A stretch of DNA of 64,000 bases from Candidatus Bathyarchaeota archaeon (GCA_963780185.1 CAWABA010000006.1:608001-672000), one strand, 5' to 3'; numbered from the stretch's first letter, positions 5,115 to 59,104 are shown. Notes: generated from the sequence alone by a model not told the origin. A program made the numbers and translations.

Positions 5115-5879
5115 TTAAGAACTCCACTGCAGTATATCTGAATCACACGTAAATGATACTTGGGCGGTTCCTGTCACTTGAAAATACCATAGAGTCAACG
5201 TATGAGTGCCTTGGCTGAGATTTATGGTCGTGGTTTGTGTTCGATAGGAATGCGAAGTAAAATCATTTATTAAAACAGAACCGTCGAGATATAATTCATC
5301 TCCGTCGTCTGCACCGATAGTGAAGGTTACGGGTCCGTTTCTCTGCATCTTGACCGTCATAGTTGCTTCAAAGCCAATGTAGGTTGCGTACGACTGAAAT
5401 ACATTTCCAGTTACCCAATTATAATTAAACGTTGAACATAATTGGGAAGTTCCAACTGTACCCCCCCATTGCAAAGAACCAGTTAATGTCATCCATGTAG
5501 CGGTCCATTGAGCAAAAGTAATAGGTGTCCCGGCGGCACAGTGTCACCCTTTTGGCCCTGTTGTCCAGTAGCGCCTGTAGCTCCTTGTGGTCCTTGTGGA
5601 CCGGTAGCACCAGTTGCTCCTTGAGGACCAGCCGCGCCTGTCGCACCAGTATCTCCCTTTGGTCCTTGGGAACCAGTCGCGCCAGTTGCTCCTTGAGGAC
5701 CTGTTGCTCCGGTGAGCTCCAGTCGCCCCAGTTGCACCAGTGTCACCTTTGTCGCCTTTTTGCCCTTTAAGCATATTTAATTGGGAAACCGCCCCAGCTG
5801 AAAGTAAGCTTGCAACCAATATTGCAACAATCAATCCAACAACAAATATACTCTTTGATATTCCGTTAAATGAAGCCAT
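5115..5879 (-). CDS. collagen-like (Gly-X-Y) surface protein with C-terminal PA14-like domain, frameshifted in assembly
   Basis: Signal/TM, then [12 protein letters not shown].../GPQGATGAT repeats over several frames, then [15 protein letters not shown] (PA14-type DD motif). Confidence 0.8.
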
Positions 5880-42271: not shown

Positions 42272-42673
42272 TTAAATTAATTCGAGCATTTTTTGAACGG
42301 TGACTATCTTGATTCCTCTGAAATCGTGCAGCGCCAAAAGATGGCTATCTCCACTTACAATCATGTCGGCGTTCGCGTCATAAGCGGTTTCAATAATCAT
42401 ATCGTCTTTAGGATCTGCTTTAACTGCCTCGAGCTTTGACGTTACTCTTACAAATTCGGAAGACCCTTTCAGCGTGAGTATAATCATGTTGATTTCTTCT
42501 TTGCCTATCTTGAATTCTGATCGACTCAGCACGCTTTCAAGTTCTTGCAAAATTAAGTCAGAGATAATGATAGAAAATCGGTTCGCCATTCCTCTTCGTA
42601 AAAGCTCTCTTGATCTACCGTTAGAAATTGTGGCGCTCACTAGAACGTTAGTGTCAAGAACAACCCTGAGCAT
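42272..42673 (-). CDS. PIN-domain toxin (VapC-like)
   Basis: VVLDTNVLVS, DPKDD, IVSGDSHLL. Confidence 0.9.
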   Translation of the reverse strand: MLRVVLDTNVLVSATISNGRSRELLRRGMANRFSIIISDLILQELESVLSRSEFKIGKEEINMIILTLKGSSEFVRVTSKLEAVKADPKDDMIIETAYDANADMIVSGDSHLLALHDFRGIKIVTVQKMLELI

Positions 42674-42686
42674 TTGATCATCCTAA

Positions 42687-42959
42687 TTATTTGCGGTAAT
42701 GCTCTTTCCTAACTTCTGACACTATTTCCTGGATTTCTTCCTCTGAAATGTTCAGATGTTTTTTGTCCATCATTTCAAAGATTTTTTCCCACTCTTTTTT
42801 CATGTCGGGCAGCTCCAGCTTTTTGAGAATGATGGTGTCGCCTTTGCCGTAGACGAGGAACTTGTTTTTCGGTTTTATTTTAAGCTCTTTTCGTATGGAC
42901 TGTGGGATGACTACTTGGCCTTTTTCGCTGATTGTTGTAACTTGTGGCTCTTCTGACAT
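42687..42959 (-). CDS. AbrB/MazE-family antitoxin
   Basis: TISEKGQVVIPQSIRKEL. Confidence 0.9.
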   Translation of the reverse strand: MSEEPQVTTISEKGQVVIPQSIRKELKIKPKNKFLVYGKGDTIILKKLELPDMKKEWEKIFEMMDKKHLNISEEEIQEIVSEVRKEHYRK

Positions 42960-43024
42960 TTAGCATCAGTAAGAATAGTTTACTTTCACACTATTAATAA
43001 GTTGCGAAAAGAATCCGAGTTTTC

Positions 43025-43255
43025 ACTTTCAGTTACCTCTCCACTGTTTGGAAGTGTCTTTTCTGCAGTTGGCTTATTAGGGAAAGTAGCCAAATCTGCT
43101 CTTCTGCTATGTAAAACGAGGCGTTTAGTATGTTAAAAAGCATCAATTCAACATGCAAACTCACGCAGTCAACTTCTATGTTGAACCATGTTGAATCATA
43201 TTTGAAGCATATTAGAAGCATCTAGTTGACCGAGGGGTAGCTGTTGCATTCAAAC
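43025..43255 (+). repeat. 231-bp inverted repeat, copy A
   Basis: Reverse complement of 49188-49418; 125-bp identical core 43102-43226; no indels. Confidence 0.95.
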
Positions 43256-43288: not shown

Positions 43289-44107
43289 TTATGGAGCGAT
43301 TTTTATTGATGTCATTGTTAGTGAGCCTGCGACTGGTTTGTCGTTGAAGAACGTTATTATCTCGTTTTTTTCTTTCAGCGCCAAGGCGTAGAGCAGGGGC
43401 AGATAATGTTCGGGCGTGGGTATAGCCAAGTTGAACGCGGTGCCTTGGGAGCGATAATTAATTAGCTGCTCATGCTCGCCGTTTAGGATATGTTTCTTCA
43501 TTTTCTCGTTGGCTTCAAGAGCCCAATCGTACCCGTACCCTGCCATGTCCATGTTCTCCCAGTCAACCAGTCCCAGATTATGCACCATGTTCCCGCTTCC
43601 AACAATCAACACGCCCTGCCTGCGAAGCGACGAAAGCTGCCTAGCCAGCGAGTAATGAAATTCCGCGTCTTTGAAGTGATCCAGGCTAAGCTGCACAATT
43701 GGGACATCGGCGTCGGGGTAAAAATGTTTCAGCACGATCCAGCAGCCGTGATCGAGACCCCACTCGTAATCCAGCTTTACGTCGGCTTTTTTGACGGTGT
43801 CCGCGACTTCTTTGGCAATGGCTAGACTGCCTGGTGCGGGGTATTGCACGTTGCAGAGTTCTTGTGGGAACCCGTAGAAGTCATGGATGGTTTTTGGTTG
43901 ATCCATCGCGGTTACAGCGGTGCCGCGTGTTTCCCAATGAGCCGACACACACAGCACTGCGGTAGGCTTGGGAATCGTCGCCGCAGCCTCCCTGAAGCCC
44001 TCTACAAACTCGTTTTCTTCGATGGCGTTCATGGGGCTGCCGTGACCTACAAACAGCACAGGCATCGGCTTTTCGCCTTTTGAGCCGCTGGTTTTTTCAT
44101 TTGCCAT
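43289..44107 (-). CDS. 4,5-DOPA extradiol dioxygenase (YgiD/LigB family)
   Basis: GHGSPMNA, SAHW, IHDFYGFP, GLDHG, GSGNMVHNL, PTPEHYLPL. Confidence 0.92.
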   Translation of the reverse strand: MANEKTSGSKGEKPMPVLFVGHGSPMNAIEENEFVEGFREAAATIPKPTAVLCVSAHWETRGTAVTAMDQPKTIHDFYGFPQELCNVQYPAPGSLAIAKEVADTVKKADVKLDYEWGLDHGCWIVLKHFYPDADVPIVQLSLDHFKDAEFHYSLARQLSSLRRQGVLIVGSGNMVHNLGLVDWENMDMAGYGYDWALEANEKMKKHILNGEHEQLINYRSQGTAFNLAIPTPEHYLPLLYALALKEKNEIITFFNDKPVAGSLTMTSIKIAP

Positions 44108-44329
44108 TCTGTTAGCCGATAGATACAGGCGGAGAATGTTTCAATAAACTTTTCTTTAGCAAGATGTAACAAGCCAAATTGGACAGACGCGTCACGGTTT
44201 TTGCGTCTATTTGGTTCATCTAGATGTCCCTATTTGGATCCTATAGAAAACCGTCGGGGGGCTGGGTACGAAAAAATAAAAAGCTGCCCGTGGAAAAACC
44301 AGCCCGAAAAAACAAGCCAGCCCTTTTCT

Positions 44330-45148: not shown

Positions 45149-45442
45149 GTGCGTCGATCAAAACTCGAAATGTATGTAGACATCCTATCAGTACTCGCCC
45201 ACAGAGGACCACTAAAACTGACACACGTAATGTACAAAGCAAACGTCAACTGCAGCGTCCTCAAAGAATACCTCGACTTCCTCATAAAACAAGGCCTAGT
45301 AGAAGAACGCACCGCAGGCAAACACCGACTCGTCTACGCAGTAACACAACGAGGCATAACAGTACTGAAATACTTCAAAGAACTAAAACAAGTCCTACCA
45401 ATAGTAGAGGAAGCCCGAAACCAAACACCAATCCCCTACTAA
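45149..45442 (+). CDS. archaeal winged-helix regulator
   Basis: RRSKLEMYVDIL..THVMYKANVN..YL.FL...YAVTQRG. Confidence 0.88.
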   Translation: MRRSKLEMYVDILSVLAHRGPLKLTHVMYKANVNCSVLKEYLDFLIKQGLVEERTAGKHRLVYAVTQRGITVLKYFKELKQVLPIVEEARNQTPIPY

Positions 45443-45652: not shown

Positions 45653-46021
45653 ATGACGACCAAAGGGCCGATAGCCATTCTTGAGAAGATTGAGGAGAGT
45701 CTTGAGAGGTTGAATGAGAAGATGGAGGTTATTATTGAGATTCAGAAGAGTGGTGGTGATGGTGGGCGTGGGTCTGTTGTGTTGCCTGATGCGTCTTTGG
45801 ATGTTATGACGCTTTTGTCTATGCCGGATCATTTGCGTAAGACTGCGATGACGATTTGTCGTTGTGGTCGTGCGACTGCTGAGGAGATTTCTGTGTCTAC
45901 TTGTCGTGCGCGTGCGGTTGAGAGTGCGTATCTTAATCAGTTGGTGCTTATGGGGTATCTCAAGAAGGAGCGTAAGGGTCGGAAGGCTTATTTTTTTGTT
46001 GATGTTGAGGGGAGGAGTTGA
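45653..46021 (+). CDS. coiled-coil plus winged-helix protein
   Basis: N-terminal heptads; ATAEEIS..RARAVESAYLNQLV.MGYL. Confidence 0.75.
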   Translation: MTTKGPIAILEKIEESLERLNEKMEVIIEIQKSGGDGGRGSVVLPDASLDVMTLLSMPDHLRKTAMTICRCGRATAEEISVSTCRARAVESAYLNQLVLMGYLKKERKGRKAYFFVDVEGRS

Positions 46022-46806
46022 TGGGTTTGAGTAGGGTTATTGCTGTTCATTCGTATAAGGGTGGGACGGGTAAGACGTTGTTGTCGGTGAATTTGGCGGC
46101 GACGCTTGCGAAGGCAGGTAGAAAAGTCTGTGTTTTTGACCTTGACTTTCGTGCGCCAAGTCTCTTCGCTATCCTTAACGCTGAATCCGCCGGGCACTGG
46201 TTTAACGATTACCTCAACAACACTGCTGACATCGGCTCAGTTATGGTGGATTTAAGCGGACGCATCTCGGGCGGAGGCAAATTTTATGCTGCTTTGGCTA
46301 ATCCGGCGACGGAGGCGATCCGTGACATGTCATCGAAGGATCGGAAATGGGAAATGCGCGCGCTGGGCCGCCTGCTTGCGTTGAAGGAAACGTTGCTTGC
46401 CAGCCAAAAATTCGATTACCTGTTCTTCGACACGAGTCCAGGCTTGCAGTATTCGTCGATAAACGCGATTGTCGCGGCAGACTTTGTGATTGTGGCGACC
46501 ACAGGCGACCGCTCCGACGTGGACGGAACCAAACGCATGCTTGCCGAACTGTATAACCTGTTTGAGAAGAAGACGGGGTTGGTTCTGAACAAAGTGCTTG
46601 ATGCATCTGCCACCGCCAAGAAAGCGGAGATGGCTGCAAAAATCAAAGACGCCTACCAAGTGCCCCTGCTCGGCTTAGTGCCCTGCTTCTGCGAAGTTCT
46701 CCGCGCCGAAGGCAACTTCATATTCGCCGAAGACAAACCCAACCACCCATTCACCAAAATCCTCACGGAAATGGCCAAAAAAATAGAAACCCACGAACTA
46801 GAATAA
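46021..46806 (+). CDS. MinD/ParA-family ATPase
   Basis: KGGTGKT, DLDFRAP, DTSPG. Confidence 0.9.
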   Translation: MGLSRVIAVHSYKGGTGKTLLSVNLAATLAKAGRKVCVFDLDFRAPSLFAILNAESAGHWFNDYLNNTADIGSVMVDLSGRISGGGKFYAALANPATEAIRDMSSKDRKWEMRALGRLLALKETLLASQKFDYLFFDTSPGLQYSSINAIVAADFVIVATTGDRSDVDGTKRMLAELYNLFEKKTGLVLNKVLDASATAKKAEMAAKIKDAYQVPLLGLVPCFCEVLRAEGNFIFAEDKPNHPFTKILTEMAKKIETHELE

Positions 46807-47451: not shown

Positions 47452-48921
47452 TTAAAGAATGAAGGCTCCTACACCCGGCGGCGCCGCGCTCCCAGCAGCC
47501 TTACACGCCAGCGCCAACGCCATCAACTGGTCATCATGCTTCCCAATCGGATGCCAAAACTTTAGGTGAATCCGCTCCTGAGCCGTCCTCGGCTGCAAAT
47601 ACGCATACTCCTGCTCGTTAAGCTGCACAACCAGCGCCTTGTCGTCTCCAGCAATTTTGAGGCGCTTCTTCTCCATGAAGAGTTTGAGCTGGTTTAGCAT
47701 GTTTTCTTTTTCTGCGTCCGTGAAGAAGACGCCTTCAACCGAAGGAATGCTGATGTTGTTGAGTTCATCCACGATGGCGTCACCTATCCCGCCCTTATCA
47801 ACGTTTAGCCGCTCAAAATGGAAAACCTGCTCTGCCCGAGCCACGTAGCCGATGACCTCGGGGTAGCTGGTTCCCAGCGGAAACTGCCGCTTGTGGACAA
47901 GCCTTACGTCGCCGTTGTAGCTTTTCTGAACCACGGCAAGCACGCTAAAATCCATCTGTTTGCCAAGGTCTAAGCCCGCGTAGCAGGGTCCGAGGAGCTT
48001 CTGTTCGGGCTTGAGTTTCTCGATGTCTTCCACGTAAGCTTTGGCTGAATCTGGGTTGCCCAGCTCGGGATCAACACAGCCCACAATCAAGTCCATCGGG
48101 AAAAACGTATGCGTCGCCTCAACCCACAACCCCTCAACCTCACGCTGCCACTCCTCATGAGTCATAACCTCCTTCCACTCGTCAAGTTGGGCGGGGCTTA
48201 CCAGCGGGCTTTGGTAGCTGGCATAGTGGTGTACGCTGTAGCGTTTGGTGTCCAAAAACGCCTTGCGGAAAACATGGTCAGAACCCATCGGCGTCCCACT
48301 CATAACCAAGCTTGCGCCGGGTTTGGTGAGCATCATCATTATCTCGCTGGTTATCATTTCGCCTGGAACGATTGATGCCTCGTCAATGAAGACGTAGTCG
48401 GGGTGGTAGCCTCTGAGCCTATCTTTAGAGCATGGAAGAGCAACAATCCTCCCGCCCAAAGGCCGCTTCAGCCTTATTTGAGTGCGGGTTGTTCCAGGCT
48501 TCAAAACCATTTCCCTAAGCAACGGGTTACCATGGATAGTTGAGTAGCAGTAATCAAACATAATCATCGATTGCCGCTGAGTGCTGCTAATGATAAGGCT
48601 CTCTATCTTCGGCTTCGTGTATAAGAGCCAAAGGTTTTTTCTGCTAAAAACAAGGCTTTTACCCCAACCTCTCCCGCAAACAGCCACCTGCCTCGGGCTA
48701 CTATCCCGAAGGAGTTTCTGATGCTCAGGCGCGTTGATTAGCCATTTGTCGCCGCACATCAAAATGGCGAAGAAAACAGGGTCAGCGACAAGTTTAGATG
48801 CTACCTCTTTATGGGAAAGCAACTCTTTTAGGGCAGCTGGCTTTTCCAGCAACCTCTCGCAAATGGACGCCGCAAACGTTGGGTCGCTTGTTACCTGTGA
48901 TATGAAAGCCGTCTCTTCCAA
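47452..48921 (-). CDS. phage terminase large subunit (ATPase plus RNase H-like nuclease)
   Basis: Walker A CGRGWGKS, LRG, Walker B VFIDEA, motif III SGTP, nuclease GLDLGK..D and HDD..MALALA. Confidence 0.9.
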   Translation of the reverse strand: MEETAFISQVTSDPTFAASICERLLEKPAALKELLSHKEVASKLVADPVFFAILMCGDKWLINAPEHQKLLRDSSPRQVAVCGRGWGKSLVFSRKNLWLLYTKPKIESLIISSTQRQSMIMFDYCYSTIHGNPLLREMVLKPGTTRTQIRLKRPLGGRIVALPCSKDRLRGYHPDYVFIDEASIVPGEMITSEIMMMLTKPGASLVMSGTPMGSDHVFRKAFLDTKRYSVHHYASYQSPLVSPAQLDEWKEVMTHEEWQREVEGLWVEATHTFFPMDLIVGCVDPELGNPDSAKAYVEDIEKLKPEQKLLGPCYAGLDLGKQMDFSVLAVVQKSYNGDVRLVHKRQFPLGTSYPEVIGYVARAEQVFHFERLNVDKGGIGDAIVDELNNISIPSVEGVFFTDAEKENMLNQLKLFMEKKRLKIAGDDKALVVQLNEQEYAYLQPRTAQERIHLKFWHPIGKHDDQLMALALACKAAGSAAPPGVGAFIL

Positions 48922-49199
48922 GTCTTATAGTCCCTTCTGATTAACCTGCGCGCCTGAGGAGTAACGTCTCGGATAAAGTCGCCGAGAGTCGAATCGCTGA
49001 ACTCTGATTCTAGCCCTTTCTGATTTATCAACTTGTTCAAAAGGCTCGCATGATAGGCAATAGCATTTGCAACCCGCGTCTTCTCCTCTATGGAAAGCTC
49101 TTTCTTCTTTAGAGTCCTCTTCAATTCACGAAGAATCTCCCACTCAAGACTGATTAGTCTATCCTGATTAGGTGGCGGTCGCCTTGTGTTTGAATGCAA
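48891..49199 (-). CDS. putative terminase small subunit
   Basis: 102-aa basic helical ORF overlapping the terL start; GGGAGGT SD; assignment is positional. Confidence 0.55.
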   Translation of the reverse strand: MHSNTRRPPPNQDRLISLEWEILRELKRTLKKKELSIEEKTRVANAIAYHASLLNKLINQKGLESEFSDSTLGDFIRDVTPQARRLIRRDYKTWKRRLSYHR

Positions 49200-49418
49200 C
49201 GTCTACCTCCCGGTCTACTAGATGCTTCTAATATGCTTCAAATATGATTCAACATGGTTCAACATAGAAGTTGACTGCGTGAGTTTGCATGTTGAATTGA
49301 TGCTTTTTAACATACTAAACGCCTCGTTTTACATAGCAGAAATGTCGAGTCGGTTGTTTTCCCTAATAAGCCGACTACAGAAAAGACATACCCAACCAGT
49401 GGAGGGATAACTGAAAGT
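49188..49418 (-). repeat. 231-bp inverted repeat, copy B (upstream region of terS-terL)
   Basis: See copy A; includes the SD and first four codons of the terS-like ORF. Confidence 0.95.
49336..49418 (+). ncRNA. candidate structured RNA or 5' leader, transcribed outward; second copy at 43025-43107 on minus strand
   Basis: TTTTTAA at 49304; two stems with four compensatory changes between the copies. Confidence 0.5.
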
Positions 49419-49566
49419 AAGCTATCTTATTTTTTGAACCGCACACCTTTTTTTACTACAGGGTCTGTAGTGCTACAGGGTGTTTAGTAAATGCCGAAAA
49501 AACTTTTTGTTCTAGTCCTGATTCAATAGCAAACTTTATTTCCAGAAATAAGAGAATGAGACGGCT

Positions 49567-52392
49567 ATGGACAAGAACTTCGCTTTGGAAAAAGTCAAAG
49601 CCCTCACCGAAAAATATCAAGAAGCTGTGAAAGAGGGAAGGATCGCAAAGTACAATGAGGAAATGACTAAGAAGGATTTCATTCTTCCCTTGTTTGAGGC
49701 TCTCGGCTGGAAAACCACAGATTCAAGAGAAGTAACAGCCGAAGAGAAAATATCCAAGAAGAGAGTTGATTACGGTTTCAGGATTAACGATATTCCAAAA
49801 TTCTTCCTAGAAGCTAAATCGTTCAAAGAAGACCTGGACGAGAGAAAATACATTGAACAAGCCATAAGTTATTCTTGGCATAAAGGATGCACTTGGGCAG
49901 TATTAACAAATTTTGAAAGCGTAAAAATCTTTAATGCCGAAGTCAAAACCGAACACCCCTAGATGAGTCAACTTAAACCAACACTCCATTGTAACGAGTT
50001 TTTGGATAAATTTGATGAACTTTCGCTTCTGTCAAGAGAAAGTTTCGAAAAAGAACTTTTAGATAAAGAGGCAGAGAAATGGGGCAAAAAAGCAAAGAAA
50101 ATGCCCATCGATAAGCAACTGTTGGCTGACTTTACGCATTTCCGAGATATTCTTTCCAGGAACATTACAAAGCTCAATGGAAATAAGCATTTGAGCGAAG
50201 AAGAATTGGATGAATCGGTTCAGAGAATCTTAGACAGGCTAATTTTTATTAGGAATTGTGAAGATCGGGAACTTGAGCCTAAGATTCTCATCTCGAATTA
50301 TAGAGAATGGGAAAGTAAAGGCAGAGGGCAACTAATCAATAGTCTAAGAGAAACATTTTCTCACTTTGACGATGAATACAACAGTAAGATATTTGCTAAG
50401 CGCTTATGTGATGACTTGGATGTAGACAATGAAGTTCTGCATGAGGTAATAGAAGGGTTATACCGCAACAAAGACAATGAACCTTATGATTTTGCAATAA
50501 TTGATGCGGATGTTCTTGGGACAATTTATGAACAGTATTTAGGACATATTCTAAGAAAGACGGAAAAAAGAGCAAAAGTGACTGAAAACCATGCTCATAG
50601 GAAGGAACAGGGCATCTATTATACCCCAACTTTCATTGTAAAATACATAGTAGATAAAACCTTAGGAGAATTATTAAAAAGTAAAAAAATAGATGTTGAG
50701 AAAATCAGGGTTCTAGACCCTGCTTGTGGGTCTGGAAGCTTTCTGATAAAAGCTTTTGATGTGCTGAATGATTATTACAAAGAACACGACGAGAACTATA
50801 AGCAAACTCGACTAGATTTGGAATCAGGTATCCTCTTTAAAACAAAAAGTAGAATCTTGCAGAATAACATCTTTGGAGCTGACTTAGATAAGCAGGCAGT
50901 TGAAATTGCACAGCTTAATCTGCTATTAAAAATAGCAGAAAAAGGGCATCGTCTCCCATTGTTGGAACAAAACATCAAAAAAGGTAACTCAATAGTTGAT
51001 GAGGAAAAGACAGCAGGTTCAGTTGCCTTTGATTGGAACCAAGAATTCAAAGCAATTATGGATGAAGGTGGCTTTGATGTCGTAATTGGGAACCCACCGT
51101 ATGTTCGGCAAGAGGAATTGACTGAAATAAAGCCATACCTTGAGGCAACCTACGAAACCTACCATGGAATGGCGGACTTGTTCGTATATTTCTTTGAAAA
51201 AGAATTGAAGATACTTAAAGAAAATGGTTACTTTGGCATGATTGTTTCTAACAAATGGCTTAGAGCAGGTTATGGACGGAATCTTAGAAAATTCTTATCA
51301 GAATTCTGGATTGAAGAATTAATTGATTTTGGAGATTTGCCAGTATTCCCTGATGCGACAATATACCCTTGCATAATTCTAATGAAGAAAATTAAGAAGC
51401 AAAATCCGAAAATAAGAATCTGTAAAATGCAAACGTTGGAATTTGGTTCTCTTGAGGCTTATGTAAAAGACAATTCCTATTCAATTAACCAACCCGACTT
51501 GAGCGAAAAAGAATGGAACATTCAGAATAAAGGGGGGAATGAGTTACTTAGGAAAATACGGAATACAGGGATTTTAATTGAAGAGTATGTTGGCTCCAAT
51601 GTGTATTACGGTATCAAGACAGGTCTAAATGAAGCATTTATTATTGATGCGAAAAAGAGAGATGAGTTAATACATGAAGATTCAAAAAATCAGGAAATTA
51701 TCAAACCAATCATTAGCGGGGCGGAACTAAAACGGTATTCAATTAGGTCAAAGAAAAACTACATACTTTTTGCAAGAAGAGGTGTGGATATATCCCAATA
51801 TCCGTCCATTTTAAAACATCTGGAACAATTCAAAAATCAATTAACTCCTAAAAGAAGCAGAGACCAAGAAATTGGGCGAAAGCCTGGTCATTATAAATGG
51901 TATGAAATGCAAGACCCCACTGATTATTATAAGAAATTTGAAGAACCAAAGATACTGTGGGGAAATCTTACAACAAGGTCATCATTCTCTCTTGATGAGG
52001 TAAGCGGATTTTATGTCAATAATCCCGCATGTATTTTGCCAACCAATTCTAGATACGTTCTTGGCATCTTAAATTCTAAGCTGATGTCCTATTTTCTGAA
52101 ATCTATCTGTGCAGAAAGGCAGGGTGGCTTCATTGAGCAGAAGCCCGTTTACGTTTCTCAAGTTCGAATTAAGAAACCGACTGAAGCGCAAGAAATTGGT
52201 TTAACCCTGCAAGTGGAAAAAATGCTTCAGCTTAATGAAAAGCTACTTGAGATTGGCGACAAATTAACAGATGAACGCGCAAAAATTGAAAACGAAATAA
52301 AGAAAACTGATTCGACAATTGACGATTATGTTTACGCGATTTACGGCATAACTGACGCAGAGAAGAAAATCATAGAAAGTAATTCACAGTAA
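49567..52392 (+). CDS. Type IIG restriction-modification enzyme (REase, m6A MTase, TRD) interrupted by an in-frame TAG at 49960
   Basis: E..TK..FI.P, VDY..LEAK nuclease; GIYYTP, DPACGSG, NPPY; TaqI_C-like C-terminus; AT-rich relative to flanks. Confidence 0.9.
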
Positions 52393-58802: not shown

Positions 58803-59104
58803 TTTCCGTGTGAACCTACGCTATTTGCCTATGCGGCTGGATGCTAAATGGGTTGTGCCTCGCCATTTTTACTTTGAAATTTTGATGTAAAAAATAGACC
58901 CCCCCCTACCCAACGCCAAGCAGGGCTTGTTCCATGCTGTTTTATTGGTTTAGCGTTTGCAGGGGACTCAGAATTTTAGCAGGTCAGAAAAAGGATTGCA
59001 AGCACCACGGAAGAATCTTTAGCGTTATTGCACGTAGTAGCTTTTGTACGGCACCTAAAAAAAGCAACTTTCTTGACAAATCTATTGTTTCCGCAAAAAA
59101 GTCT

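Follow-up and report, generated by a model that had tools for sequence, protein, structure and literature searches.

Bathyarchaeia are largely known from metagenomes. Toxin-antitoxin operons autoregulate through palindromes at the promoter. Archaeal promoters, as mapped across the genome of Thermococcus onnurineus, combine an 8-bp TATA box centred ~27 nt before the transcription start with an A-rich BRE ~33 nt before it, and further comprise a proximal element (position -10), a pyrimidine directly ahead of the start (-1) and a Shine-Dalgarno (SD) sequence of the GGDGRD type (PMC5316973). A literature search found no paper on a promoter/leader motif of Bathyarchaeia or on a radA promoter box conserved in archaea.

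Here, we analyzed a stretch of 64,000 nucleotides from a Candidatus Bathyarchaeota genome (hereafter, the window), for which a preliminary description had proposed a novel covarying structured RNA, present in two copies and associated with a terminase. The two copies are best explained, with a probability of roughly 60%, as a paralogous cassette of promoter plus leader specific to one Bathyarchaeia family. Its conservation, its fixed spacing, its restriction to the family and its match to the 3' end of 16S rRNA are direct observations.

Results

Two Diverged Copies at the Ends of an Inverted Repeat

The 83-nt stretch under study (copy B; 49336-49418, plus strand) has a sole twin within the window (copy A; 43025-43107, minus strand), and both represent the outer, diverged ends of the arms of a 248-nt inverted repeat (43008-43255 and 49188-49435; 88% complementary, with 5932 nt between the arms). 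The two diverged copies of the preliminary description were recovered at these positions, and its count of 17 differences proved exact, over 83 nt; 12 of the 17 are transitions. Identity of the arms drops sharply from 100% over 153 nt (49189-49341) to ~78% (49342-49435), a pattern mirrored in copy A, and the switch point, located two bases ahead of the first putative hairpin (stem 1, below), resembles either the boundary of a tract of gene conversion linking the inverted copies or the trace of a recent re-insertion of the repeat. An invertible segment was also considered: the inverted repeats are present, but no recombinase family was found among the ORFs scanned between the arms, which comprised the LigB-family gene (43289-44107, minus strand), a winged-helix gene (45149-45442, plus strand), ParA (46018-46806, plus strand), the large terminase subunit, several unknowns and part of the small ORFs. 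Coding on the opposite strand was rejected as well: a stop-free frame of 40 codons spans both copies but lacks a start codon, ~13 of the 17 differences would be non-synonymous (hand count), and the ORF listing contains no such ORF.

The inner, identical part of the arms (~153-155 nt; 49187-49341, plus strand, and 43102-43255, minus strand, at copy A) corresponds to one half of a genome repeat of ~300 nt, which carries CAAMTAK-like words at ~11-nt spacing, an SD sequence and a TTG start. The own genome holds 12-13 matches with the window copy as a query and 23 with a full-length copy, and weak matches occur in 2 of 12 other genomes of the genus. At copy A, the repeat halves (43102-43255 and 44196-44282, both on the minus strand) are 940 nt apart, with the LigB-family gene inside; at copy B, one repeat half provides a divergent 102-aa ORF (48891-49199, minus strand) with its SD, its start codon (TTG) and its first residues (MHSNT). 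The ~300-nt repeat behaves like a MITE-like or a cassette-flanking element.

A second dispersed repeat is present at 1678-1721 and 58863-58906 of the window and on three contigs of the own genome (C11, C12 and C10). It reads GGGGGTCTAGTATTT... / ...TTTGTGACCAAAAACCA(C/T)CACAAA, the latter part being a 7-bp hairpin, and lies beside several copies of the first repeat. Elsewhere in the window (5565-5708), small ORFs contain 9-nt-periodic, GGN-rich direct repeats that read as collagen-like Gly-X-Y on the minus strand.

A 43-nt Motif Restricted to One Family

A covariance model built from the two window copies (R1) yielded weak matches in the own genome and in relatives, and these matches share only the 3' half and an A/T box; 12 of them align gap-free from the A/T box to the end, i.e., without indels between the box and the motif. 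A sequence-only model of 43 nt, containing neither the A/T box nor any structure (R2), covers 49379-49421 (plus strand) in copy B and 43022-43064 (minus strand) in copy A, the latter being the best-scoring match in the genome (47.9 bits). At E <= 0.05, R2 matches 118 of 150 genomes of the same Bathyarchaeia family, with 10 sites in the own genome (14 rows by nhmmer). At E <= 0.001, it is found in 11 of 15 family genomes vs. 3 of 134 genomes of other families in the class, and this near-absence outside the family argues for a lineage-specific motif as opposed to a generic SD or promoter signal. The copy number varies from 1 to 14 per genome, and about four-fifths of the genomes searched contain the motif.

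Of the 272 matches reported, 72 distinct sequences were analyzed individually, comprising those supplied as loci and 40 that were retrieved in addition. The family consensus starts with aaa.c.CTTTTAAAaC, which is followed after 6-7 nt by GAAACGACA and a pyrimidine-rich stretch, and ends with aAaCAGtGGAGAG..AGT(T/G)AAAGTGAAA; copy B holds AGAAAAGACA at -14 to -6 relative to the predicted start. In one genome (G133, locus L059:1400-1540, minus strand), a motif copy is followed by 2-3 tandem ~34-nt repeats of its own 3' part (AGAGGTAACTAAAAGTGAAGAGGCAACAAAGTAA). At the acylphosphatase/Tag locus (L019, L056 and, in the own genome, C7:54130-54250, minus strand), a further ~45 nt are conserved after the motif, including GTGTAC.GGCAACCACAA..GCTTAAATTCAAAA, which may represent a hairpin and a second A/T box for the downstream gene.

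Promoter Signals and Predicted Transcription Start

The element taken for an invariant loop in the preliminary description (TTTCCCTAATAA in the window) aligns with the A/T boxes of the family and corresponds to the TATA box TAATAA (49364-49369, plus strand, in copy B; 43074-43079, minus strand, in copy A). Even though this region lies outside R2, 60 of the 71 members free of N's have an A/T run of at least 5 nt that begins 14-18 nt ahead of model position 1. The layout of archaeal promoters, an A/T box at a fixed distance preceded by an A-rich stretch, is found across the family. At the place where the published geometry puts the transcription start (PMC5316973), a pyrimidine-rich stretch gives way to AAACAG, a fit of sequence only, and the predicted start would fall at ~49393-49395 in copy B (plus strand; A at 49394 or 49395) and at ~43048-43050 in copy A (minus strand). 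With a start after the pyrimidine stretch, the 5' arm of the second proposed stem (stem 2; -6 to -2) would lie upstream of the transcription start.

A second A/T box further upstream, TTTTTAA (49304-49310), had been put forward as the promoter of an RNA containing both stems; its firing would indeed place both in an RNA, and it is located 25 nt ahead of 49336, as described. However, homology within the ~300-nt repeat family ends at CTTTT(C/T)AACAT, so that the TTTTTAA box is the edge of the repeat. Most repeat copies read TTTTCAAC at this site, and the family consensus there (CTTTTCAAC) is a poor TATA box.

Downstream, a T6 run (49430-49435, plus strand) located ~40 nt past the predicted start of copy B is, judging by its sequence, a likely archaeal terminator. 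Runs of T5 or longer occur within 70 nt downstream of the motif in 22 of 69 members vs. 12% in shuffled sequence.

Predicted Ribosome-Binding Leader and Start Codon

Model positions 25-32 read GAGGTGA or one-mismatch variants of it and match the complement of the 3' end of the own-genome 16S rRNA (...GGATCACCTCCT). The corresponding SD-like sequences are GGAGGG at 49401-49406 (plus strand) in copy B and GGAGAG at 43037-43042 (minus strand) in copy A, and it is this SD sequence that makes up the 3' arm of stem 2. Among 73 members, positions 39-41 are occupied by GTG (57), ATG (7), GTA (6) or another codon (3); in other words, GTG or ATG follows the SD after 6-7 nt in 64 of 73 members, and AAA comes next. 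Copy A combines the SD with a start codon, GTG at 43024-43026 (minus strand) opening a 10-codon ORF, and copy B does not: it carries GTA (49417-49419, plus strand) where relatives have GTG or ATG. Having lost this start codon and meeting a T6 run after ~40 nt, copy B probably arose as a side product of the inverted duplication and is now decaying.

The preliminary description had offered, as a second option, the regulatory leader of a lost gene starting near CTG AAA GT. Its leader component agrees with the promoter plus SD leader found here, but the start-like codon is 6 nt further on, and the loss of the start applies to copy B (GTA), copy A still having GTG. The ORFs that follow the start codon vary from 3 to 29 codons or more (10 of 64 scored run past the stretch read), and no conserved ORF was found among them, with orthologous loci differing in both stop position and peptide. 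As neither ORF length nor ORF sequence is conserved, coding conservation lends no support to translation of the mini-ORF.

Genes Around the Two Copies and Around Family Motifs

Outward of copy A lie a MazE/AbrB-type antitoxin gene (42687-42959, minus strand), with its start 65 nt past the motif, and next to it a PIN toxin gene (42272-42673, minus strand). Copy B is followed by an HSDR_N ORF (49567-49962, plus strand) and an Eco57I/MmeI-type methylase ORF (49963-52392, plus strand). These two ORFs share one frame, parted by TAG and then ATG (49960-49965). They are either neighboring genes or a single type IIG enzyme that an amber codon has broken or split; decoding of the in-frame TAG as pyrrolysine was considered and set aside, as a search of the genome (93% complete) yielded no PylS above the cut-off.

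On the divergent side of copy B, the 102-aa ORF (no Pfam or PHROG match) is followed downstream by a gene similar to the terminase large subunit (47452-48921, minus strand; Terminase_6N, 2.4e-5; phrog_2, 2.9e-33). The proposed association with a terminase is not conserved: the terminase adjoins only one of the two copies, and the closest paralogous locus of the genome (L072, C6:741064), which comprises the motif and a divergent 103-aa gene 44% identical to the 102-aa ORF, has no large ORF in the place of the terminase. We consider the terminase link incidental.

Across the family, an upstream ORF on the opposite strand is present within 300 nt in 68 of 71 members taken from loci (both window copies included, one of them counted separately), and a real gene with its own SD is located 45-420 nt downstream of the motif in 66 members. 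By Pfam, the downstream gene is acylphosphatase in 20 of these 66, an orthologous locus conserved across genera, followed by ThiF (2) and by single cases of DEAD helicase, ArsR, DDE transposase, Tag glycosylase, fumarase, DUF72, DUF420, PRiA4_ORF3 and MazE; the remainder has no match. Of 69 upstream ORFs, 41 were scanned (the 28 left out are mostly from the acylphosphatase locus), yielding the Rad51/RadA/RadB family (9), winged-helix proteins (4), DUF7493 (3) and DUF559 (2). RadB-like paralogues carry full motif copies. At the radA locus itself, 17 of 30 family genomes (L144-L173) have a sequence just upstream that partly matches the motif's 3' half; it is on the opposite strand in all 17 (by reading of coordinates) and consists of an SD-like sequence and GT(T/G)AAAGTGAA; in the own genome, it maps to C9:72071-72113 (L105/L166), on the strand opposite to radA. 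The counts for radA and for the neighboring genes are inflated by orthology.

At two further loci (L071, own genome C6:890529-891930, and L012), a gene of 88-89 aa is divergent from the motif, and behind that gene comes an ORF of 387 aa. The N-terminus of this ORF (…RGWLLDVYP…) is reminiscent of family-B DNA polymerases.

Pairing in the Two Copies and Its Fate Across the Family

The two arms of stem 1 form an inverted repeat that encloses the TATA box (49344-49378, plus strand, in copy B, with arms 49344-49355 and 49369-49378; arms 43088-43099 and 43065-43074, minus strand, in copy A). The earlier claim that both stems keep their pairing through compensatory swaps was borne out, with two double changes in each: in stem 1 at columns 10-42 (U-A/C-G) and 16-38 (C-G/U-A), next to a G-U/G-C change at 19-35, and in stem 2 by direct reading of alignment columns 53-57/69-73, which correspond to positions 47-51/63-67 in the original numbering. 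The hairpin energies of the two copies are -11.8 and -11.3 kcal/mol, and the 2-nt bulge of stem 1 is placed differently in copies A and B. As for G-U pairing as a signal of the outward strand, one such strand-specific pair exists (U19-G35 of copy B) and no other, while copy A's stem 1, with Watson-Crick pairs throughout, is a perfect palindrome, identical on either strand.

Folding energies were not clearly below those of shuffled sequence for either copy. For the 83 nt of the outward strand, z-scores are -1.05 and -0.53, and 26 and 59 of 200 shuffles, respectively, fold equally well or better; the corresponding values are -0.05 and -0.12 for the opposite strand and -0.19 and -0.50 over ~130 nt. 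The covariation observed between the two copies is reached in 120 of 500 column shuffles, a comparison without statistical power because it involves only two sequences. Copy B was also given random mutations at 17 positions, in 3000 trials under each null. Under a uniform choice of positions, the hairpin region is as stable as in the real copy A in 17% (MFE) or 28% (alifold) of trials. The actual mutation load is uneven, with 9 changes in the 5' arm of stem 1 (16 nt) vs. 2 in the 3' arm, and when the mutation density of each arm is matched, the hairpin is retained in only 2-3% of trials (p ~0.02-0.03). Pairing of stem 1 kept across 20% divergence is, thus, unusual under the stricter null.

The broader family did not reproduce either stem. 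RNAalifold on the 12-member alignment produced no consensus pairs; when both stems are imposed on those 12 members, they are 70.4% paired vs. 59.4% in shuffles (reached by 0 of 500), the single outcome that favors the stems and one biased by the selection of the set with a model that contains stem 1. Among the 72 distinct members found without structure in the model, stem 2 is paired at 66.3% vs. 68.2% for shuffled columns (480 of 500 shuffles at or above the observed value), and such pairing as exists arises because a pyrimidine tract faces a purine tract. For stem 1, the flanks of the A/T box of each of 71 members were compared with flanks swapped between members. The mean longest stem around the TATA box is 3.61 vs. 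3.70 in controls (Watson-Crick pairs only) and 4.44 vs. 4.53 with G-U allowed, and the duplex energy is -4.05 vs. -4.19 kcal/mol. The window copies head the list, with 8 (copy B) and 6 (copy A) contiguous pairs, and the flanks of other members pair no better than swapped ones, so that stem 1 is confined to the window copies; the closest same-genome paralogue (L072) does not have it. A small CAGU/ACUG hairpin is paired at 79.2% vs. 79.4% in shuffles, i.e., shows no covariation.

Within the promoter-leader interpretation, stem 1 may be either fortuitous or a candidate protein operator, and in neither case is it a family feature. A stem 1 devoid of function would be a chance inverted repeat of the duplicated ancestor that survived by luck and transition bias. 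The uniform null is compatible with this, as is the excess of transitions, which makes swaps between G-C and A-U easy, and several unrelated family members have chance stems of 6-7 bp at the same place; yet the low retention under the matched-density null, as well as the fact that copy B has the longest such stem of 71 members, speaks against pure chance and leaves this explanation on the unlikely side, if still worth serious attention.

A DNA operator would instead be an inverted repeat (8-10 bp) that brackets the TATA box and serves as the binding site of a dimeric regulator such as the AbrB/MazE-type antitoxin (with PIN) encoded past copy A. Binding would hide the TATA box, and symmetric changes of the half-sites would reflect the need of a dimer for matching half-sites. 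The repeat is indeed centred on the A/T box, both changes of its 3' arm are mirrored in the 5' arm, the copy A repeat reads equally on both strands, and the promoter reads into the MazE-like/PIN pair. However, it is copy B, with no antitoxin gene downstream, that has the better repeat (8 vs. 6 contiguous pairs), and the 9 vs. 2 distribution of changes and the shifted bulge are odd for a symmetric site. On these grounds, an operator appears doubtful, at long odds.

Comparison with known families and wider searches also bear on the stems. None of 4227 Rfam models matched the 64-kb window at the gathering score; around both copies, E values up to 10 returned chance-level matches only (best 12-17 bits vs. 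thresholds of 36-70), and no match at E up to 0.1 was found in 8 of 10 repeat loci (L003-L010). By BLAST against 201 family genomes, the full-length copies are the two window copies only, with a 40-nt partial match in one congeneric genome. The 15-nt loop pattern had 31 matches in viral contigs, all of them ending within 20 nt, as expected by chance, and metagenome scans with loop plus GGAG and with loop plus 3' arm gave no match each. A scan of a genome collection with the 3' motif returned three matches, two in Bathyarchaeota MAGs and one in a Peribacteria contig, the last taken as chance.

Overall, the structured-RNA reading of the 83-nt stretch does not hold. The novel covarying RNA was to be abandoned if a larger alignment showed no significant covariation, and ~70 relatives show neither stem. 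A version specific to the two copies, in which a small RNA (~85-100 nt) or cis-regulatory leader would read outward from TTTTTAA with stem 1 as a 5' hairpin and a second helix masking the SD-like GGAG(R)G, could draw on the double changes, the hairpin energies, the matched-density null, the distance of TTTTTAA and the T6 run that would end such an RNA, but is most improbable given the weak z-scores, covariation matched by shuffles of two sequences, uniform-null mutants that do equally well, a loop and 3' half that belong to the promoter-leader motif, a paralogue without stem 1, a TTTTTAA box at a repeat edge, and the lack of homologues in the family genomes, metagenome scans, viral contigs and Rfam.

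Discussion

The promoter-leader cassette favored here would read outward from an A-rich, BRE-like stretch to an A/T box (TAATAA in the window, CTTTTAAAAC as the family consensus), followed 9-10 nt on by an almost invariant GAAACGAC(A) block (about -14 to -6), a pyrimidine-rich segment at -5 to -1 and purines with the predicted start, and would end with an SD of the GGAG-R-G-GUGA type, a GUG or AUG 6-7 nt later, and AAA. TBP, TFB and RNA polymerase would start transcription ~23-25 nt past the A/T box, possibly with the transcription machinery or a regulator contacting the -14 to -6 block; a ribosome would then load on the leader and start the short non-conserved ORF. The transcript of copy A would run into the mazE-like/PIN operon. 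Because the underlying sequence rules come from other archaea, the start site, the direction and the existence of the transcript are predictions. Conservation of the first 30 nt predicted to be transcribed, across non-orthologous loci and across genera, argues that the cassette is not a plain core promoter.

A bolder interpretation is that the motif and the TATA box form a lineage-specific operator/leader (-14 to +30), read by a regulator and marking a regulon of DNA repair/recombination and mobile elements. Its basis is the half-motif found divergently upstream of radA in 17 of 30 family genomes. Full copies adjoin RadB-like paralogues, a Hef-type DEAD helicase, Tag glycosylase, a DUF559 endonuclease and a transposase, as well as the terminase operon, a restriction-modification gene and the toxin-antitoxin pair. 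Although we regard such a regulon as improbable, it would, if true, provide a candidate damage-response ("SOS-like") box for a family of uncultured archaea, and the window copies would tie mobile element and defence genes into a damage-response circuit.

The promoter-leader cassette is of broader use in two respects: (i) a sequence-defined regulatory box, recurring upstream of radA and its paralogues, offers a handle on expression signals and possible regulons in Bathyarchaeia genomes, and (ii) the locus illustrates how a TATA box and an SD sequence can give rise to a "covariation" signal between two copies.

In comparison with known systems, the likeness of the 83-nt stretch to Rfam structured RNAs is limited to length and intergenic position. 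Archaeal origin-recognition boxes presumably also contain a CAGTGGA-like core resembling the motif, but the motif is dispersed, with 10-14 single copies in a genome, all of them at promoters. As in toxin-antitoxin operators of the AbrB/MazE type, the inverted repeat of copy A overlaps the predicted promoter of the MazE-like/PIN pair; unlike in them, the copy B repeat has no toxin-antitoxin pair and the repeat is absent from other family members. With SD regions and upstream short ORFs of 5' leaders, the cassette shares the 16S-complementary GAGGTGA-type sequence, GTG/ATG and AAA, and it differs from them in the unconserved ORFs, the own SD of the downstream gene and the start loss in copy B. 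A close counterpart is found in T. onnurineus promoters (PMC5316973), which likewise feature an 8-bp A/T box, an A-rich stretch just upstream, a pyrimidine-to-purine step ~27 nt past the box centre and a GGDGRD-type SD. The intergenic location between divergent genes is also as in archaeal core promoters, and what sets the cassette apart from the T. onnurineus promoters described there is the nearly invariant GAAACGAC block in place of a merely A/T-rich -10 region (PMC5316973).
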